Notes under the pieces: generated by a model | Told to the model about the DNA's origin: nothing | Seen by the model: only the letters and a program-made list of their open reading frames with translations | Database searches by the model: none | NCBI RefSeq assembly: GCF_003334785.1 | Contig: NZ_QOWV01000008.1 | Reading direction: 5' to 3' (one strand) | Length of the DNA stretch: 64,000 bases | From: Escherichia coli | GTDB taxonomy: Bacteria; Pseudomonadota; Gammaproteobacteria; Enterobacterales; Enterobacteriaceae | Shown here: positions 4,734 to 53,172 of the stretch, piece by piece | How the letters are laid out: every line of letters begins with the position of its first letter | How positions within the stretch are numbered: the first letter of the stretch is position 1 | Program-made: the position numbers and the translations under genes

Positions 4734-5878
4734 AAATCACCAAAATTACCACGTATCGTTTACCTCCCCGCTGGATGTTCCTGAAAATTGAAACCGATGA
4801 AGGCGTGGTCGGTTGGGGCGAGCCCGTGATCGAAGGCCGCGCCCGTACGGTGGAAGCGGCAGTTCACGAGCTGGGTGACTATTTGATTGGTCAGGATCCA
4901 TCGCGCATCAATGACTTATGGCAAGTGATGTATCGCGCCGGATTCTATCGCGGCGGTCCGATCCTGATGAGCGCCATCGCCGGGATTGACCAGGCGTTAT
5001 GGGATATCAAAGGTAAAGTGCTGAATGCGCCGGTCTGGCAACTGATGGGCGGCCTGGTTCGCGACAAAATTAAAGCCTACAGTTGGGTTGGCGGCGATCG
5101 TCCGGCGGATGTTATCGACGGCATTAAAACGCTACGCGAAATCGGCTTCGATACCTTCAAACTGAACGGTTGTGAAGAACTGGGGCTAATTGATAACTCC
5201 CGCGCGGTAGATGCGGCGGTTAACACCGTGGCACAAATTCGTGAAGCTTTTGGCAATCAGATTGAGTTTGGTCTTGATTTCCACGGTCGCGTCAGCGCGC
5301 CGATGGCGAAAGTGCTGATTAAAGAACTGGAGCCGTATCGCCCGCTGTTTATTGAGGAGCCGGTGCTGGCGGAACAAGCCGAATACTACCCGAAACTGGC
5401 GGCACAAACGCATATTCCACTGGCGGCGGGTGAACGCATGTTCTCACGCTTCGATTTTAAACGCGTGCTGGAGGCAGGTGGTATTTCGATTCTGCAACCG
5501 GATCTCTCCCACGCGGGCGGTATTACCGAATGCTACAAAATCGCCGGAATGGCAGAAGCCTATGACGTGACCCTTGCGCCGCACTGTCCGCTCGGACCGA
5601 TTGCACTGGCGGCTTGCCTGCATATCGACTTTGTTTCCTATAACGCCGTACTTCAGGAACAAAGTATGGGAATTCATTACAACAAAGGCGCGGAGTTACT
5701 CGACTTTGTGAAAAACAAAGAAGACTTCAGCATGGTCGGCGGCTTCTTTAAACCGTTAACGAAACCGGGCTTAGGCGTGGAAATCGACGAAGCTAAAGTG
5801 ATTGAGTTCAGTAAAAATGCCCCGGACTGGCGTAATCCGCTCTGGCGTCATGAAGATAACAGCGTAGCAGAGTGGTAA
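4730..5878 (+). CDS. dgoD: D-galactonate dehydratase (enolase superfamily)
   Basis: 382-aa [35 protein letters not shown]... Confidence 0.9.
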
Positions 5879-7290: not shown

Positions 7291-8351
7291 TCCTTCAACT
7301 GTGGAATATGTGCCACACCACTGCGCATAATCCACTTTCTTAAAGCCGGTGCGGTCAGGCATCGGCTTTTTACTATCTTGCCGAAGAGTTTTAAACGCAG
7401 TTTGCGGGTGGCGCGCCAGTAAGCGGTATTGAGCTTCTCTGGCTGCTTCAGTAACACCGAACGCAGAATGTCTGTGCTATCCAGCGCATAGCTAATCCCC
7501 TCCAGCGAGCTGGCGCTGATAAATCCCGCCGCTTCACCAATCAGAAAGGCGTTGTCCTTACCGCAGACAAAATCCTGCCAGCGCGAGGGAAACAGCACCG
7601 TGCATTTTTCGCTTTTCACCGTCTTACCAAACTGGAACTGAAAGGCGCTCATTTTCTCTTTCAGCGTCGTGAAACGCGTCTGACCGTCTTTCATTGGATA
7701 GGCACCGCCAAAGATAAAATAACCGTCTTTGCTGATACTCCATGAATAACAGTTAGTTATCGAATTATCAAAGATGCAGGAGTAGAACGGCACCGGATGT
7801 TTCTCCGCGAACCACTGCTGGATAGCGACATATTTACGGATTTGATGATCCGGGTAGAGATGTCGCCGCACCATCGAGTTTGCGCCATCGGCACCGACCA
7901 GATAGCGGGCGGTAATATGTTGCTCCCAGCCGTCTGCACGAAAAATGACATGCCATTTATCATCCTCACGCCAGATTTTTCGGCACAGGCTGTCGTGATA
8001 AACCTCAACGCTGGCGGGGATCAGCGATTTCATCCACAAGTCGAAAGCATGGCGATTAATATTGATATAGCTTCGCTGGTAGTTACGCGTGAGCGATGCG
8101 GCGACGTCGACGGTTTTGACGCTGAAAATCTGCGGATTAGCGATCACATCGACAGGAAGCGTCAGCCCATCGCGAATAAAAGATCGCTGCGCGTCCGGTG
8201 CCAGCAGACCGCCGCAGGGTTTGCTGAAACCTTCAGTACCACACTGGTGCTTTTTATCCAGCGCGATCACCTGCATTTTGCCTGCTAACTTTCGTGCCAA
8301 CGCCGATCCTGCCGGGCCGAGGCCAATAATCGCCACGTCGAAATGTTCCAT
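7287..8351 (-). CDS. cbrA: FAD-dependent oxidoreductase CbrA (colicin E2 tolerance)
   Basis: ORF 7287..8372; internal start [17 protein letters not shown] with GxGxxG FAD-binding motif; 354 aa. Confidence 0.8.
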
Positions 8352-8418
8352 CTTTTCACTCACATTCATCACGATGGCAAAAGACTATTGTCTGAAAGTG
8401 AAGTCCTTGTGAAGTATG

Positions 8419-9666
8419 ATGGCGGGACCCGTTTTGTATCAGGACCGCGCCATGAAACAGATAACCTTTGCTCCCCGTAATCACCTGCTCACCAATACCA
8501 ATACCTGGACGCCCGACAGCCAGTGGCTGGTATTTGACGTGCGTCCTTCTGGCGCGTCGTTTACCGGCGAGACCATTGAGCGTGTGAATATCCATACCGG
8601 CGAGGTCGAGGTTATCTATCGCGCGTCACAGGGCGCACACGTCGGCGTGGTGACCGTTCATCCGAAGTCAGAGAAATATGTTTTCATCCACGGCCCGGAA
8701 AATCCTGATGAAACATGGCATTACGACTTCCATCATCGGCGCGGAGTGATTGTTGAAGGCGGCAAGATGAGTAACCTTGATGCGATGGATATTACCGCGC
8801 CGTATACGCCAGGAGTGCTGCGCGGCGGCAGCCATGTGCATGTCTTTAGCCCGAACGGTGAAAGGGTGAGCTTTACCTATAACGACCATGTAATGCATGA
8901 ACTCGATCCGGCGCTGGATTTGCGAAACGTCGGTGTTGCTGCGCCGTTTGGCCCGGTCAACGTACAAAAGCAGCATCCGCGTGAATACAGCGGTAGCCAC
9001 TGGTGCGTGCTGGTGAGCAAAACCACGCCCACGCCACAGCCTGGCAGTGATGAAATCAATCGTGCTTATGAAGAAGGATGGGTAGGAAATCACGCGCTGG
9101 CATTTATTGGCGACACACTTTCGCCAAAGGGCGAGAAAGTGCCGGAGCTGTTTATCGTTGAGTTACCGCAAGATGAAGCTGGCTGGAAAGCGGCAGGTGA
9201 TGCGCCGTTAAGCGGAACGGAAACAACCCTGCCCGCGCCACCGCGTGGCGTCGTGCAGCGACGTTTAACCTTTACCCACCATCGGGCTTATCCGGGGTTA
9301 GTCAACGTCCCGCGCCACTGGGTGCGCTGTAATCCGCAGGGTACACAAATCGCGTTTTTAATGCGAGATGATAACGGCATTGTGCAACTGTGGCTTATCT
9401 CGCCACAGGGCGGCGAGCCGCGCCAGTTAACCCATAACAAAACGGATATTCAGTCTGCATTTAACTGGCATCCGTCAGGAGAATGGTTGGGCTTTGTGCT
9501 GGATAATCGAATTGCTTGTGCCCATGCGCAAAGCGGCGAGGTTGAGTATTTAACCGAACACCACGCCAATTCACCTTCTGCGGACGCCGTGGTCTTCTCG
9601 CCGGATGGTCAGTGGCTGGCGTGGATGGAAGGCGGCCAGCTGTGGATCACCGAAACTGATCGCTAA
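8419..9666 (+). CDS. yidR: Uncharacterized protein YidR
   Basis: ORF 8416..9666; start codon choice between adjacent Met codons is uncertain. Confidence 0.75.
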   Translation: MAGPVLYQDRAMKQITFAPRNHLLTNTNTWTPDSQWLVFDVRPSGASFTGETIERVNIHTGEVEVIYRASQGAHVGVVTVHPKSEKYVFIHGPENPDETWHYDFHHRRGVIVEGGKMSNLDAMDITAPYTPGVLRGGSHVHVFSPNGERVSFTYNDHVMHELDPALDLRNVGVAAPFGPVNVQKQHPREYSGSHWCVLVSKTTPTPQPGSDEINRAYEEGWVGNHALAFIGDTLSPKGEKVPELFIVELPQDEAGWKAAGDAPLSGTETTLPAPPRGVVQRRLTFTHHRAYPGLVNVPRHWVRCNPQGTQIAFLMRDDNGIVQLWLISPQGGEPRQLTHNKTDIQSAFNWHPSGEWLGFVLDNRIACAHAQSGEVEYLTEHHANSPSADAVVFSPDGQWLAWMEGGQLWITETDR

Positions 9667-13829: not shown

Positions 13830-14124
13830 CTCTAGATCTCTTTTTTGCCTGCAAGCCCGGGTAATGCGCACACAAGTTCTGCTTAATCGATTGAAAAAAC
13901 ATCTTTTTTTTAAAGATGTGTTCGATGCTGTGTACCTGTGCTCACAGAGGTCTACTTTTTCGCGAAAACGTAGATCTCTACCGCCCAACGAAAAGCATGA
14001 AAGCGATCACGAATCCCATTGGGTCGTCATGTTCTGCCGATCGCATCTTCCTATCCTCGCTCCAGGCCTGCCGCATAACCAATCAGGCTTCCTACTTACA
14101 GAATTGAGAAAAGAGGATGTGGAA

Positions 14125-46508: not shown

Positions 46509-46676
46509 TAAAATATAAAAAAACAAACAGTAAGCCGGTTTTTCCTACGACCTTTTCCTGGCTTGCCGGTGTGAGGATGAGTCTCCTGTGTCAGGGCTGG
46601 CACATCTGCAATGCGTCGTGTTGTTGTCCGGTGTACGTCACAATTTTCTTAACCTGAAGTGACGAGGAGCCGGAAA

Positions 46677-47411
46677 ATGTCTGACAACACCATCCCTGAA
46701 TATCTGCAACCCGCACTGGCACAACTGGAAAAGGCCAGAGCCGCCCACCTTGAGAACGCCCGACTGATGGATGAGACCGTCACGGCCATTGAACGGGCAG
46801 AGCAGGAAAAAAATGCGCTGGCGCAGGCCGACGGAAATGACGCTGATGACTGGCGCACAGCCTTTCGTGCAGCCGGTGGTGTCCTGAGCGACGAGCTGAA
46901 ACAGCGCCACATTGAGCGCGTGGCACGCCGGGAGCTGGTACAGGAATATGACAATCTGGCCGTGGTGCTGAATTTTGAACGTGAACGCCTGAAAGGGGCG
47001 TGTGACAGCACGGCTACCGCCTACCGGAAGGCACATCATCACCTTCTGAGTCTGTATGCAGAGCATGAGCTGGAACACGCCCTGAATGAAACCTGTGAGG
47101 CGCTTGTCCGGGCAATGCATCTGAGCATTCTGGTACAGGAAAATCCGATCGCCAACACCACCGGCCATCAGGGCTACGTCGCACCCGATAAGGCTGTCAT
47201 GCAGCAGGTGAAATCATCGCTGGAACAGAAAATTAAACAGATGCAAATCAGCCTCAGCGGCGAGCCGGTTCTCCGGCTGACCGGACTGTCAGCGGCAACA
47301 CTTCCGCACATGGATTATGAGGTGGCAGGCACACCGGCACAGCGCAAGGTGTGGCAGGACAAAATAGACCAGCAGGGAGCAGAGCTTAAGGCCAGAGGAC
47401 TGCTGTCATGA
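46677..47411 (+). CDS. P4 Sid-like capsid size-determination scaffold
   Basis: ORF 46659..47411; ATG at 46677 preceded by gaggag RBS; 244 aa, coiled-coil-rich. Confidence 0.8.
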   Translation: MSDNTIPEYLQPALAQLEKARAAHLENARLMDETVTAIERAEQEKNALAQADGNDADDWRTAFRAAGGVLSDELKQRHIERVARRELVQEYDNLAVVLNFERERLKGACDSTATAYRKAHHHLLSLYAEHELEHALNETCEALVRAMHLSILVQENPIANTTGHQGYVAPDKAVMQQVKSSLEQKIKQMQISLSGEPVLRLTGLSAATLPHMDYEVAGTPAQRKVWQDKIDQQGAELKARGLLS

Positions 47412-47908
47412 TTTACTGCCCGTCGTGTGGACATGTTGCTCACACCCGCCGCGCACATTTTATGGACGATGGCACCAAGATAATGATTGCACAGTGCCGG
47501 AATATTTATTGCTCTGCGACATTTGAAGCGAGTGAAAGCTTTTTCTCTGACAGTAAAGATTCAGGAATGGAATACATTTCAGGCAAACAGAGATACCGCG
47601 ATTCACTGACGTCAGCCTCCGGTAGCATGAAGCGCCCGAAAAGAATGCTTGTTACCGGATATTGTTGTCGGAGATGTAAAGGCCTTGCACTGTCAAGAAC
47701 ATCGCGGCGTCTGTCTCAGGAAGTCACCGAGCGTTTTTATGTGTGCACGGATCCGGGCTGTGGTCTGGTGTTTAAAACGCTTCAGACCATCAACCGCTTC
47801 ATTGTCCGCCCGGTCACGCCGGACGAACTGGCAGAAAGCCTGCATGAAAAACAGGAACTGCCGCCAGTACGCTTAAAAACACAATCATATTCGCTGCGTC
47901 TGGAATGA
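47408..47908 (+). CDS. P4 Delta-like late transactivator (tandem Ogr-type zinc finger)
   Basis: 166-aa ORF with two CxxC..CxxC blocks (CPSCGH..CRNIYC and CRRCKG..CTDPGC). Confidence 0.8.
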   Translation: MIYCPSCGHVAHTRRAHFMDDGTKIMIAQCRNIYCSATFEASESFFSDSKDSGMEYISGKQRYRDSLTSASGSMKRPKRMLVTGYCCRRCKGLALSRTSRRLSQEVTERFYVCTDPGCGLVFKTLQTINRFIVRPVTPDELAESLHEKQELPPVRLKTQSYSLRLE

Positions 47909-47981: not shown

Positions 47982-48554
47982 ATGGAAAGCACAGCCTTAC
48001 AGCAGGCCTTTGACACCTGTCAGAATAACAAAGCAGCATGGCTGCAACGCAAAAATGAGCTGGCTGCGGCCGAACAGGAATATCTGCGGCTTCTGTCAGG
48101 AGAAGGCAGAAACGTCAGTCGCCTGGACGAATTACGCAATATTATCGAAGTCAGAAAATGGCAGGTGAATCAGGCCGCCGGTCGTTATATTCGTTCGCAT
48201 GAAGCCGTTCAGCACATCAGCATCCGCGACCGGCTGAATGATTTTATGCAGCAGCACGGCACAGCACTGGCGGCGGCACTGGCACCGGAGCTGATGGGCT
48301 ACAGTGAGCTGACGGCCATTGCCCGAAACTGTGCCATACAGCGTGCCACAGATGCCCTGCGTGAAGCCCTTCTGTCCTGGCTTGCGAAGGGTGAAAAAAT
48401 TAATTATTCCGCACAGGATAGCGACATTTTAACGGCCATTGGATTCAGACCTGACGCGGCTTCGGTGGATGACAGCCGTGAAAAATTCACCCCTGCGCAG
48501 AACATGATTTTTTCGCGTAAAAGTGCGCAACTGGCATCACGTCAGTCTGTGTAA
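47982..48554 (+). CDS. P4 Psu-like polarity suppression / capsid decoration protein
   Basis: 190-aa ORF following delta. Confidence 0.8.
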   Translation: MESTALQQAFDTCQNNKAAWLQRKNELAAAEQEYLRLLSGEGRNVSRLDELRNIIEVRKWQVNQAAGRYIRSHEAVQHISIRDRLNDFMQQHGTALAAALAPELMGYSELTAIARNCAIQRATDALREALLSWLAKGEKINYSAQDSDILTAIGFRPDAASVDDSREKFTPAQNMIFSRKSAQLASRQSV

Positions 48555-48718: not shown

Positions 48719-48737
48719 GGCGAGGCGGGGAAAGCAC
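48719..48737. other. cos site (P2/P4-type 19-nt cohesive end sequence)
   Basis: ggcgaggcggggaaagcac. Confidence 0.6.
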
Positions 48738-48979: not shown

Positions 48980-50269
48980 ATGAAAAAAAATGTTGGTAAC
49001 CGCAATAAAAATTCTGATGTGCTTATTCTTAAAGGTATGTTGAACAATTTAAAAGATGGTTTAAATAATTTTGAATTATTGCTTAAATTGCAGTTTAAAA
49101 TATTGGTGTGCGTGATGAGATGTGAGCGGAAAATTAAGTTTCTTAAAAAGAATAATGCTCATTTAAGGTCGGTGTTAAAAAAATCAAGACTTCCAAAAGA
49201 AAAATCTCTGGCAGTAAAAGAAAAAATTAAATACAATTCTGAAGTAATTACTGCTGAAAAATTCAAGATATATACGTATAAAATGTTTGGCGATGCTGTT
49301 GCATTTTTATACATCGATAAATATACAATTAAACAGTTATACTACAATGTACATAATTACAATGTTAAAGAAACGTCGGGGGATTTGAGCGGTAAGTCTG
49401 GATTGCGAGAGGAATGGGAATGCGTAAAACTTGCATGTGATAATAAAGTTCCAGCTCTGTTGCATGATATTACAATGAGTATAAGGCATGGAGATGTATC
49501 ACTTTTAGGTAAAGATGAGCCATTTATTATTGAGATGAAATCAAGCTCAAATACAAATAAGAGAGTTGAGCGGCAAAAATCTAACCTTGAAAAATTAGGA
49601 AGTTTCATAGCAAAAGACGAAGCTGAAAATTTTCGAGGGATTCCATTGTTAATCAGGAAAAATTTGTTAACTGAAGAGGAATCATATTCTCAGGTTTTAA
49701 ATGAGTGTCTTAATGATTGTCGCAGCAAAGGAATGGCTTTGGTTGAAGCTGAAAAAGGATTTTATATCTGCGCAGTTAGAGAAGGGAATATGGCTTCTAT
49801 GCTAGAAAATATAGATTTTGATGAAAAAAAAGAAGTTTTTCCTGTATTTCTCAATCAATATAAAAATAATGGGGAGTGGCTACCATTAACACCATTTACA
49901 CTATTAATTAACGATCCTTACGATCTCCATGATTTTATCGAAGGGGAATTAACAATAGCTTGTTTTTTAATGCTCGATGAATACAAAAAAATTGCTATAG
50001 AACTAGGCTATGAATTAGTTTTTGTTTCTAATGATGAATATAGTATCTTGTTAAAAAGAATTGGTGAAGATATTATATTTGGTGTTTCCTGGCAAATGTT
50101 GTTAAGAGTTCCATTAGAGATGATGTCCATGTCATGGTTGATAAAAGAAAGTATTAATATATATAGTAACTCCCTAGAAAATAGCACCCATAATGATGAA
50201 TTAAATCAGGGGCAGGGAAATACTAAAAATTCATTATTCGAAAAATACAAGAATTTATTTTCTTACTAA
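48980..50269 (+). CDS. Hypothetical protein in satellite variable region; PD-(D/E)xK-like signature
   Basis: ORF 48965..50269 (GTG) or ATG at 48980; AT-rich; motif HGDVSLLGKDEPFIIEMK. Confidence 0.6.
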   Translation: MKKNVGNRNKNSDVLILKGMLNNLKDGLNNFELLLKLQFKILVCVMRCERKIKFLKKNNAHLRSVLKKSRLPKEKSLAVKEKIKYNSEVITAEKFKIYTYKMFGDAVAFLYIDKYTIKQLYYNVHNYNVKETSGDLSGKSGLREEWECVKLACDNKVPALLHDITMSIRHGDVSLLGKDEPFIIEMKSSSNTNKRVERQKSNLEKLGSFIAKDEAENFRGIPLLIRKNLLTEEESYSQVLNECLNDCRSKGMALVEAEKGFYICAVREGNMASMLENIDFDEKKEVFPVFLNQYKNNGEWLPLTPFTLLINDPYDLHDFIEGELTIACFLMLDEYKKIAIELGYELVFVSNDEYSILLKRIGEDIIFGVSWQMLLRVPLEMMSMSWLIKESINIYSNSLENSTHNDELNQGQGNTKNSLFEKYKNLFSY

Positions 50270-50301
50270 TTAAGCATTGTAATTATATTTGATTTTTTCT
50301 A

Positions 50302-50335
50302 CAGGCTTGGACGGAATCATATAGCTCCAAGCCTG
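50302..50335. terminator. Hairpin between the two convergent cargo ORFs
   Basis: Perfect 10-bp stem caggcttgga..tccaagcctg with 14-nt loop. Confidence 0.45.
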
Positions 50336-50370
50336 TTGTGTCGGTATCAAAAAGAAAGTGATATTATTGT

Positions 50371-51744
50371 TTATCTAATATATTTTGTTACTTCCATATT
50401 ATCTTCATCGTCAAAAGAGTACTCAACCATCATACGACTATTTTTACCTGACTTAATATCTTGAAGCCAAGCTGAGGCAACCCTAGGGTCTAAATGCTGT
50501 TTTCTACTCAGCTCATTATTTTTTAGCCTATCAAGCCTTATTGCTCTTTGAAGAGTTTTATCGATGTAGTCTTCCAAATCAATGGACAACCTCCTTTTTG
50601 GATATAAATATTGGTATTCATCACACAATAGTACTCCTGGTAATTTAATTTCGCGTAGGTCGAAAGAATACCAACTATAGTTTTTAGACTCATTAGCTAA
50701 TTCCGAAACTAGATGAGCCCCATTTTGTTGTAAGAGAGATATTTTGTGATCGATGCTAATGTCAGATATTTCTCTTAAAGACTCAAAATGCATGTTTTCG
50801 TAGATAGTATTTAATAAAATACTCTCCATGTAAGAGTAAAAATCAGTACCATCGATGATAATATTAGTTTCATTGTAGACTGCAAGAGACATAAGATATA
50901 TGAAGAAAACTGCGGGAGTACTATTACCTCTGTTTATATCAAGTCTAAGGGAGTTGACATAATCAGGCGGAGAGTTTGAGAAAATTTCTCTTATTAACCA
51001 GTCTGGAATAGTGGTTCTTGTTAGAATGTCAGCGTTCAAACTTGAACGACATAAAAAAATACACATCTTTAATTTTAATTTTATTGAAAATGATGGGAAT
51101 AAATGATCGATGAAAGATAAAATACATGTATACTCTGCTAAGTCTGTTTGTTGCAACTTTTCTTTTATTTCATTTTCAAGCATTTTTAATTTAAAAAAAT
51201 CATTCCTTTTTTCTAATATTTCCCAATGAAATAATTGCTCCTGAGCGTACGCATGCCCCTCTAAAATAGCTAGCATGCTTAAAGGAATGTTTAGGATTTC
51301 TTGATAATTATTAACATACCCAAAGAAATGGACTCTGATATACACACCCATATCGTCATCATATTGTAATGATGCTTTAATATTTTTATAATTTAATTTA
51401 TTAGTGCTGTTGTTTTTGAAGTGATAATGTAAAGTAATTTCAGTATCATCAACTAATAAATTATCAAAAGCCTCCTTTGTTTCATATTTAAAATAGTTAT
51501 ATAGCCGACATGAATAATTTAACCCCCAGTGAGTTGTAGAACAATCAAGTAAATGGATTGTTTCATGGAGATATGTTTTATAAAATTCAATTTCGCTATC
51601 ATCAAAATCATATATGCTTTTACTGTCTATGATATTTTGTGCTTGCGGTAAACTTATATTTAATTCATCGTTTGAAATCTCAATTAAATGTGATGAAAAA
51701 TCATAAGAACCCAATGTTTTGCTGTTAAATATACATCCGCTCAT
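50371..51744 (-). CDS. Hypothetical protein with HEXXH zinc-metallopeptidase motif, translationally coupled to int
   Basis: 457-aa AT-rich ORF; YLHETIHLLD at residues 58..67; start overlaps int stop as ATGA; agggga RBS. Confidence 0.65.
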   Translation of the reverse strand: MSGCIFNSKTLGSYDFSSHLIEISNDELNISLPQAQNIIDSKSIYDFDDSEIEFYKTYLHETIHLLDCSTTHWGLNYSCRLYNYFKYETKEAFDNLLVDDTEITLHYHFKNNSTNKLNYKNIKASLQYDDDMGVYIRVHFFGYVNNYQEILNIPLSMLAILEGHAYAQEQLFHWEILEKRNDFFKLKMLENEIKEKLQQTDLAEYTCILSFIDHLFPSFSIKLKLKMCIFLCRSSLNADILTRTTIPDWLIREIFSNSPPDYVNSLRLDINRGNSTPAVFFIYLMSLAVYNETNIIIDGTDFYSYMESILLNTIYENMHFESLREISDISIDHKISLLQQNGAHLVSELANESKNYSWYSFDLREIKLPGVLLCDEYQYLYPKRRLSIDLEDYIDKTLQRAIRLDRLKNNELSRKQHLDPRVASAWLQDIKSGKNSRMMVEYSFDDEDNMEVTKYIR

Positions 51745-52916
51745 AGCAAATCCCCTAAAAGATAATCAGAGTACCATTGAATCATCGTTTTCCTTTGAGA
51801 AAAATATTGTGCGTGATTATAGGTTCCTCGGATATTGTTCTTATCAACATGTGCTAATTGCATTTCAATCCAGGTACTATCAAATCCCTGTTCATGTAGG
51901 ATTGTTGACATTGTATGTCTAAAACCGTGACCTGTAGCACGTCCTTTGTAACCAAGTAACTCAATCACTTGTGAAACACTTTCTTTTGAAATTGGTTTGC
52001 TACGATTGTTCCTGCCAATAAAAATATAGGGATAATGGCCGGTGATAGGCTTTAGCTGTTTAAAGAGGTCTACCACCTGAGTAGACAAAGGTACAATATG
52101 TGGTCTGCGCATTTTCATACGTTCCGCTGGTATCTCCCATATACCTTTTTCGAGGTCTACTTCTTCCCACGTAGCAAAGCGCATCTCCTGCGTTCTTACA
52201 CCAGTCAGCATGACTATCTTCGTAGCATTTTTGGTGATGATGCTACCGGTATAAGCTTCGAGATCCCGAATAAAATGAGGCAATTCTTCGGCAGATAGAA
52301 ATGGATGATGTTTTTGCTTAGGAACGGCCAGAGCGATGGCTAAATCAGGCGCAGGATTGTATTCAGCGCGGCCAGTTATGATTGCGTAGCGATAAACCTC
52401 ACCGCACCTCTGACGTACCTTACGTGTTTTCTCTAGTGCTCCACGCTTCTCTATTCGTCGCAACACTTCAAGAAGTTCTAAGGGTTTGATTTCACTAATA
52501 GGACGTTTACCAATGAACGGGAAAACATCTTGCTCAAATGTTTTAATAATTTCTTCGCGGTAGGCAAGTGTCCAGCGATCGGCTTTATTTGAGTGCCACT
52601 CACGACATATAGCCTCGAATGAGTTTTCTGTTGAGAGCTGCTGTGCCAGCTTTTGGGCTTTACGTTCTTCCACTGGGTCTATGCCGTTTGCAACCTGCTT
52701 CCGAGCTGTATCGCGTTTCTCACGTGCTTCAGCTAGGCTCACAAGGTCGTAGCTACCAAATGACATTAACCGCGCTTTTCCGGCAAAGCGGAAACGGAAA
52801 CGCCAGCCCTTCGAGCCATCGGGATTGATAAGCAATGACAGGCCCTGCCCGTCGTTCAATGTGTATGGCTTGTCTTGGGGCTTTGCTCGTTTGATTTGTA
52901 TATCTGTAAGTGCCAT
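51741..52916 (-). CDS. int: P4-type tyrosine integrase
   Basis: 391-aa ORF with C-terminal catalytic-type residues (GHGFRHT.., ..NHAQY); adjacent to tRNA 3' end. Confidence 0.9.
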   Translation of the reverse strand: MALTDIQIKRAKPQDKPYTLNDGQGLSLLINPDGSKGWRFRFRFAGKARLMSFGSYDLVSLAEAREKRDTARKQVANGIDPVEERKAQKLAQQLSTENSFEAICREWHSNKADRWTLAYREEIIKTFEQDVFPFIGKRPISEIKPLELLEVLRRIEKRGALEKTRKVRQRCGEVYRYAIITGRAEYNPAPDLAIALAVPKQKHHPFLSAEELPHFIRDLEAYTGSIITKNATKIVMLTGVRTQEMRFATWEEVDLEKGIWEIPAERMKMRRPHIVPLSTQVVDLFKQLKPITGHYPYIFIGRNNRSKPISKESVSQVIELLGYKGRATGHGFRHTMSTILHEQGFDSTWIEMQLAHVDKNNIRGTYNHAQYFSQRKTMIQWYSDYLLGDLL

Positions 52917-53077: not shown

Positions 53078-53172
53078 TGGCGGAAGATCACAGGAGTCGA
53101 ACCTGCCCGGGACCGCTGGCGGCCCCAACTGGATTTGAAGTCCAGCCGCCTCACCGGAGACGACGATCTTCC
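53078..53172 (-). tRNA. selC: tRNA-Sec (selenocysteine)
   Basis: Minus strand reads GGAAGATCGTCGTCTCCGGTGAGGCGGCTGGACTTCAAATCCAGTTGGGGCCGCCAGCGGTCCCGGGCAGGTTCGACTCCTGTGATCTTCCGCCA. Confidence 0.85.

Follow-up and report, generated by a model that had tools for sequence, protein, structure and literature searches.

What is a rare 457-amino-acid (aa) protein with an HEXXH motif doing in the cargo of a P4-like satellite of Escherichia coli? The gene in question, here called open reading frame (ORF) B or ORF-B, lies in a stretch of 64,000 nucleotides (nt) of contig NZ_QOWV01000008.1 (assembly GCF_003334785.1), the whole of which is referred to as the window, and it belongs to a P4-like satellite that is inserted at tRNA-Sec (selC). 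A first-pass annotation, made from the letters alone, had singled it out as a possible activatable protease effector, coupled in translation to the satellite integrase. We consider ORF-B a good candidate for a one-gene anti-phage protease, as one of many uncharacterised hotspot cargos. The reading that we tentatively prefer, with a likelihood that falls a little short of even, is that of a stand-alone, phage-triggered zincin protease devoted to defence. Metal binding, peptidase activity, a trigger, a substrate and the defence phenotype itself are what we infer from the evidence set out below.

The motif was found exactly where the annotation had placed it, as HETIH at residues 60 to 64 (51567-51553) within YLHETIHLLD (51573-51544), in a minus-strand ORF whose coordinates and length were also reproduced. 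The number of HEXXH motifs expected in a protein of this composition is ca. 0.03. Within the window, the motif is present in 3 of the 76 ORFs that reach 100 aa or more, and the existence of two further ORFs carrying it places the bare motif at chance level. As far as the sequence goes, a lone HEXXH in ORF-B is insignificant, and it is conservation across the family that counts. The other two occurrences are HELEH in a sid-like protein of the satellite (46659-47411, plus strand), where the match is surely fortuitous, and HESDH in a 625-aa ORF that begins near 13864 (plus strand).

A word-indexed search of 5.8 billion proteins retrieved six relatives only, and 82 (46 of them at E <= 1e-10) came out when 1.84 billion cluster representatives were searched exhaustively with HMMER. 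The family amounts to some 82 clusters at 50% identity, and nearly all of its members are 430 to 470 aa long. Conservation was assessed on an alignment of 72 full-length members with 15 to 34% identity to ORF-B, plus one 73% allele among them. Six residues (H60, H64, D67, W73, G74 and E162) are found in all 72 homologues, three (E61, E169 and Y205) in 71 and A165 in 70, and R80, E102, H106, E204 and R272 are kept in at least 90% of them. What had been taken for a zinc-metallopeptidase-type signature is, over these 72 homologues, a truly conserved motif of catalytic type, and the search for a third zinc ligand that the annotation had suggested gives a candidate in the invariant E162, on a later helix. 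The pattern HExxHxxD...(L)E(G/A)xAxxxE would be expected of a gluzincin-type metal site, where a pair of His is joined by a catalytic Glu and, on a later helix, by a further Glu as ligand. HExxHxxD is also present in MtfA and in anthrax lethal factor. That the ORF might not be translated, a possibility raised in the annotation, is countered by the ratio of nonsynonymous to synonymous substitution rates (dN/dS), which is 0.084 against the 73%-identical allele (locus L008) and points to a translated gene under selection. Judged by this ratio, purifying selection on ORF-B is strong.

The AlphaFold2 model built on the 72-sequence alignment reached a predicted local distance difference test score (pLDDT) of 92.3 and a predicted template modelling score (pTM) of 0.92; an earlier model from five sequences (pLDDT 49) was discarded. 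The modelled chain starts with strands 12-15 and 20-23, helix 32-40 and a long helix (49-70) that bears HExxH. An inserted unit follows, with helices in 72-108 and a meander of three strands in 119-154, and then comes helix 157-179, which opens with E162, followed by an all-helical C-terminal half (ca. 200-457). Zincins have their elements in the order sheet, backing helix, active-site helix and glutamate helix, and the model of ORF-B has the same order, suggesting a zincin-like fold. The best matches among solved structures are also zincin peptidases (MEROPS clan MA), specifically the gluzincins of families M49 (DPP III) and M1 (LTA4H and aminopeptidases), with a weak likeness (Z <= 6.3). What ORF-B shares with them is a short sheet near the N-terminus, a helix carrying HExxH, an acidic residue at the third position past the second His and, on a later helix, an invariant Glu within E-(G/A)-x-A. 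No informative structural match was obtained for the C-terminal domain. Foldseek searches against AFDB50 retrieved only uncharacterised proteins of ca. 450 aa, from Proteobacteria, a cyanobacterium, Flavobacterium and Prosthecobacter. The automatic name of one AFDB entry hinted at a link with ZorC/EH_Signature, which found no support: there was no Pfam EH_Signature in the 72 members and no PADLOC match above chance level. Altogether, the model describes what appears to be a divergent zincin-like family devoid of existing annotation, with evidence from the fold that is suggestive rather than decisive.

Lit, the protease of prophage e14, is a protein of about 300 aa that cleaves a host factor upon phage infection, and it was the precedent invoked in the first-pass annotation. 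ORF-B resembles it in having HEXXH and in being a single polypeptide encoded by a mobile element, and we propose for it the same kind of action, latent until infection. Taken as kinship, however, the parallel does not hold. ORF-B had no match to Pfam Peptidase_U49 (PF10463) at E <= 10 and its 72 relatives had none either, so that there is no detectable homology, and ORF-B is 457 aa long versus about 300 for Lit, with an extra helical domain of ca. 250 aa. The activatable protease effector of the annotation is thus partly supported: the motif is conserved and the setting in a hotspot, an integron and defence islands fits a defence effector, and there is no homology to Lit and a weak likeness to zincins. 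To our knowledge, there are very few protease-based defences with a known substrate, Lit being the classic case.

The places where ORF-B and its relatives reside are consistent with a role in defence. ORF-B itself lies in the variable segment, flanked by psu/cos and by int, which is the position of the P4 defence hotspot. Most of the tested cargo of this hotspot is anti-phage, according to Rousset et al. (PMC9122126) and to a 2026 preprint (bioRxiv 10.64898/2026.02.27.708500). The preprint describes six out of eight randomly picked unknown P4 cargos as protecting against phage, which gives a high prior for defence at the ORF-B locus.

Related loci outside P4 are located in very diverse contexts. 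In Vibrio parahaemolyticus, the relative (35% identity) is a single-gene cassette of the chromosomal integron, in which we counted 24 or more attC-like repeats over 17 kb; the copies at 7850 and 9346 flank the gene (8001-9347). In Idiomarina and a JGI metagenome contig (L007/L009), it is found directly upstream of tnsA-tnsB-tnsC-tniQ, in a Tn7-like arrangement. In both, the relative and a 241-aa gene have tnsA on one side and a truncated Mg-chelatase (comM-like) gene on the other, a position that indicates the transposon end adjoining tnsA. We found no kinship of this 241-aa gene either to ORF-B or to ORF-A, the convergent neighbour of ORF-B in E. coli. In Photobacterium ganghwense (L013, 626-14456), the relative is one of the genes that fill ca. 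8 kb between a TnsC-like ATPase gene and tniQ, and the company of tniQ and the type I-F genes Csy2, Csy3 and Csy4 indicates that it is cargo inside a type I-F3 transposon associated with clustered regularly interspaced short palindromic repeats (CRISPR). This position of cargo, between the transposition and the targeting modules, is unusual. Other relatives are found next to known defence genes. The one in Colwellia abuts QatABCD (QatA, E 3e-201), and the one in Acinetobacter pittii follows the cyclase and the two-transmembrane effector of a cyclic-oligonucleotide-based anti-phage signalling system (CBASS). A further member adjoins a UPF0175/PIN toxin-antitoxin pair, another is downstream of polA and still another (L024) lies in the remnant of a prophage, which also has an antirepressor gene and an Arc gene. 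No partner gene was conserved across the contexts examined. With no constant neighbour, the ORF-B family gives the picture of a module of one gene that is sufficient by itself and belongs to mobile elements and defence islands.

Under the preferred reading, ORF-B would be a soluble cytoplasmic protein of two domains. The N-terminal one would be a divergent gluzincin-type metallopeptidase, with zinc held by H60 and H64 (D67 standing behind) and by E162, and with E61 as the catalytic base. The helical domain that follows, of ca. 250 residues, may be a sensor or an autoinhibitory module. The int transcript would probably provide a low, constitutive supply of the protease by way of the ATGA overlap of the two genes, and the protease would stay latent until its C-terminal domain is engaged by a protein or complex derived from the phage. 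Once activated, it would cleave a phage protein or a host factor that is essential, and phage multiplication would stop, the overall mode being a one-gene, Lit-like defence by abortive infection or interference. Possible also, and held with slightly less assurance, is the extension of this scheme to the whole family, hitherto unrecognised, as single-polypeptide immune proteases distributed over several phyla, with a zincin and a helical sensor (fused in some to a ribbon-helix-helix [RHH] domain), carried as cargo by P4, integrons and Tn7-like or CRISPR-associated transposons, and stopping phage by triggered cleavage of one particular protein of the host or the phage. If true, a one-gene metalloprotease system would be added to the bacterial immune repertoire, and a function would be assigned to a family of ca. 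80 sequence clusters for which there is no Pfam, NCBIfam or PADLOC model. The appearance of the same family as P4 cargo, integron cassette and passenger of a CRISPR-associated transposon would also illustrate how defence genes are shuttled between unlike elements.

Several points weigh against this interpretation. There was no sequence match of ORF-B to any peptidase family or defence system in Pfam, NCBIfam, PADLOC or the PDB (sequence and profile). Pfam gave nothing for ORF-B even at E <= 10 and nothing informative among the 72 relatives; PADLOC-DB v2 (including ZorC/EH_Signature, HEC and PDC) gave no family for ORF-B and only chance-level matches for 10 relatives, and NCBIfam gave chance-level matches at most for 10 diverse relatives. 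PHROGs had no match for ORF-B, and no relatives of ORF-B or of the protein P0079 were detected in the isolated phage genomes of INPHARED. By all these sequence comparisons, ORF-B belongs to no described family. The cassette is also rare, being present in just 10 of 5,426 complete E. coli genomes, with all copies at least 99.8% identical. The pair formed by ORF-A and ORF-B had been listed as P4-hotspot system #32, with 48 occurrences and the description "hypothetical + hypothetical" (Rousset et al. 2022, PMC9122126, Table S1), and it is absent from the tested constructs of that work (Tables S2A and S2B). It was not found either in the text or the accessible supplementary files of the 2026 preprint (10.64898/2026.02.27.708500). 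Position 276 is occupied by Arg in 65 of the 72 members and by Thr in the E. coli allele and its 73% variant. Around this residue (ca. 50917-50919), ORF-B has RGNSTP versus the consensus RGxSR, and on this alignment a basic residue that is otherwise conserved in the C-terminal domain has been lost from the P4-borne clade. Finally, a regulatory role is hinted at by the linkage of some relatives to DNA-binding domains of the Arc/RHH type, and HEXXH can also serve non-proteolytic chemistry, as in the Fe/alpha-ketoglutarate oxygenases (PMC12636437).

The linkage to Arc/RHH domains leads to the alternative that survives best, although we regard it as unlikely, i.e., a regulatory zincin of the ImmA/IrrE/CapP type that would sense stress or infection, perhaps through the C-terminal domain. 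Its target would be a repressor that binds DNA, or the RHH domain fused to it, and the outcome of the cleavage would be derepression and no killing. A 558-aa protein of Acinetobacter venetianus (L014, 7575-9251) has an N-terminal Arc/RHH fused to the HExxH domain, and phrog_228 ("Arc-like repressor"), in its positions 90-251, matches the N-domain of 10 out of 10 diverse members. A separate Arc gene (4911-5273) is located two genes upstream of the family member in L024, and CapP/CapH provides a precedent (PMC13228613; bioRxiv 10.1101/2022.04.27.489752). However, Arc fusions are a minority in the family, and ORF-B itself had no phrog_228 match at E <= 0.01. It differs from ImmA, IrrE and CapP (COG2856, Peptidase_M78) in its C-terminal domain, and it gave no Pfam match to Peptidase_M78/IrrE. 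Nor is there an adjacent repressor at the E. coli locus, whose cassette contains no repressor gene. The Vibrio gene is alone in its integron cassette, and the other contexts examined have no conserved partner.

Could ORF-B instead be half of a system completed by ORF-A, a nuclease-like protein and a protease that would depend on each other, one perhaps being the sensor or antitoxin of the other? ORF-A had no Pfam match but has an invariant D177...E190-x-K192 that resembles the PD-(D/E)xK nuclease motif. The two genes recur together as a unit at the 48 P4-hotspot occurrences mentioned above, they are convergent with a shared hairpin in between, and within P4 they have co-diverged, with 74 and 73% identity and dN values of 0.146 and 0.156 for ORF-A and ORF-B, respectively, in the second allele. 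Nevertheless, they are on opposite strands and their families also occur separately. Relatives of ORF-A stand alone in the P2 prophage hotspot of Citrobacter (L020), between gpA and the portal gene, and in that of Serratia (L019) there is one beside a 456-aa protein, for which we found no kinship to ORF-A or ORF-B. A satellite remnant in Pluralibacter has ORF-A with no ORF-B gene called, and ORF-A was not the neighbour of any ORF-B relative that we examined outside P4. In Klebsiella (L025), ORF-B is intact and two shorter hypothetical genes are annotated at the position of ORF-A, which we read as broken. This alternative seems to us slightly less likely than the regulatory one, and ORF-A as an obligate partner of ORF-B was set aside as the leading view. 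From its distribution, ORF-A is probably a defence candidate in its own right, formed by one gene and moving between the hotspots of P4 and P2.

More doubtful again is a non-proteolytic HEXXH metalloenzyme, similar to the Fe(II)/alpha-ketoglutarate oxygenases or some other hydrolase, acting on a peptide, a nucleotide or another small substrate, with an HEXXH that would bind the metal without cleaving protein. The alpha-ketoglutarate HEXXH enzymes (ChlH, BpmH and PflC; IPR026337/TIGR04267) have the same motif in a fold reminiscent of zincins and were long misannotated as peptidases (PMC12636437). The resemblance of the ORF-B fold to true peptidases is weak, and one distant structural relative carries the automatic name of lantibiotic-dehydratase-N protein. 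Against this, TIGR04267/IPR026337 had no match in ORF-B (E <= 0.1) or in 10 diverse members (E <= 10), leaving membership of that family unsupported, and the neighbourhoods examined contained no genes for RiPPs (peptides made by ribosomes and modified after translation), i.e., no precursor, radical S-adenosylmethionine or transporter genes nearby. A conserved catalytic Glu, a Glu ligand and HExxHxxD are typical of hydrolytic gluzincins, and the arrangement of E61, E162 and HExxHxxD in ORF-B fits them. The least probable option is that ORF-B plays no part in defence. It would then be an inactive remnant or a gene that merely hitch-hikes, as an accessory or as a selfish gene (such as an addiction toxin or an effector between bacteria). 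In favour of this option one could adduce its rarity, the near identity of the 10 E. coli copies, an apparently frameshifted copy in strain SCU-115, the replacement of R276 in the E. coli clade and a PAAR gene near one relative. Against it are the strong purifying selection, the invariant catalytic motif, the repeated adjacency of family members to known defence systems and the high frequency with which P4 hotspot cargo turns out to be anti-phage once tested (10.64898/2026.02.27.708500).

The junction of ORF-B with int bears on its expression. The minus strand across the junction reads ...TTTTAGGGGATTTGCTATGAGCGG, with the ATG of ORF-B at 51744-51742 and the TGA of int at 51743-51741, so that the 4 nt shared are ATGA. 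Both the overlap and the Shine-Dalgarno sequence described in the first-pass annotation are there (AGGGGA at 51756-51751, 6 nt before the ATG), and both are kept in the 73%-identical allele, which belongs to another P4-like satellite at the same site. Promoter and terminator scans gave nothing above the expectation from shuffled sequences, and no clear promoter of ORF-B itself was found. ORF-B is probably expressed from the int transcript via the stop/start overlap, and the letters of the junction would be compatible with translational coupling of the two genes. The conservation of this junction suggests that a satellite can use the message of its integrase to express its cargo. At the other end of ORF-B, between the convergent stops of ORF-A and ORF-B, there is a perfect 11-bp inverted repeat (ACAGGCTTGGA / TCCAAGCCTGT) with a 14-nt loop (50301-50336), which folds at -19.4 kcal/mol (z -4.55). 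There is no U-tract past the stem in either direction, and hence it is not a canonical intrinsic terminator.

Table 1. Position in the window of ORF-B, its predicted domains and motifs, and the accompanying satellite genes and sites.
Feature	Coordinates	Strand	Basis or remark
ORF-B, 457-aa HExxH protein, WP_001406847	50371..51744	-	ORF translation
HETIH (H60-E61-x-x-H64), proposed metal ligands and catalytic base	51553..51567	-	72-homologue alignment
D67, after HETIH	51544-51546	-	72/72
LEGHAYAQE block, residues 161-169; E162, proposed third metal ligand	51238..51264	-	alignment and model
N-terminal zincin-like domain, ca. residues 10-200	51145..51717	-	AlphaFold2 model
C-terminal all-helical domain, ca. 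residues 201-457, proposed sensor/regulatory	50374..51144	-	conserved E204, Y205, R272
ATGA overlap, ORF-B start / int stop	51741..51744	-	sequence; kept in L008
AGGGGA Shine-Dalgarno-like element inside int coding sequence	51751..51756	-	6 nt upstream of ORF-B ATG; AGGG kept in L008
P4-type tyrosine integrase int	51741..52916	-	PRK09692, E 1.3e-86 (NCBIfam); last ca. 20 nt fall in the variable cargo
ORF-A, 429 aa, WP_000742539, phrog_14906	48980..50269	+	convergent
sid-like gene	46659-47411	+	
delta	47408-47908		
psu	47982-48554		phrog_6366, E 7e-101
19-nt P2/P4-type cos (presumed), psu-side edge of cargo hotspot	48719..48737	+	exact match, 0 expected by chance
tRNA-Sec (selC), satellite integration site	53078..53172	-	

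The rest of the element agrees with the satellite integrase setting that had been described, as the alpA, sid-like, delta, psu, cos, int and tRNA-Sec features were all found. Their order is alpA-like, sid-like, delta, psu, cos, the two convergent AT-rich genes (ORF-A and ORF-B) and int, and the 19-nt sequence at 48719-48737 is what we take to be a P2/P4-type cos site. The cargo segment has a GC content of 27 to 33% versus 54 to 58% in the satellite core. Similarity to other E. coli satellites ends at ca. 48764 on the psu/cos side, and similarity to other int alleles ends at ca. 51760-51804, 20 to 60 nt short of the int stop. Since the similarity breaks before this stop, the last int codons, the Shine-Dalgarno-like element and the ATGA junction must travel with the cargo. 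Each cargo therefore supplies its own C-terminal tail to the integrase, here ...YLLGDLL*.

The window is part of an E. coli chromosome, and its 3.2-kb cargo segment is 100% identical to that of E. coli strain A1. In E. coli SCU-115 (NZ_CP054368), the match to ORF-B covers 1,373 of 1,374 nt and there are two hypothetical proteins annotated beneath it, which suggests a frameshift. Salmonella also carries the ORF-B cassette (P0003), and in the Klebsiella genome already mentioned (CP125156) it is 97% identical and occupies the same selC-yicI site. The CP125156 record is a 5.4-Mb chromosome labelled as a plasmid, and it has an IS5-family element ca. 2.7 kb past ORF-B, on the ORF-A side.

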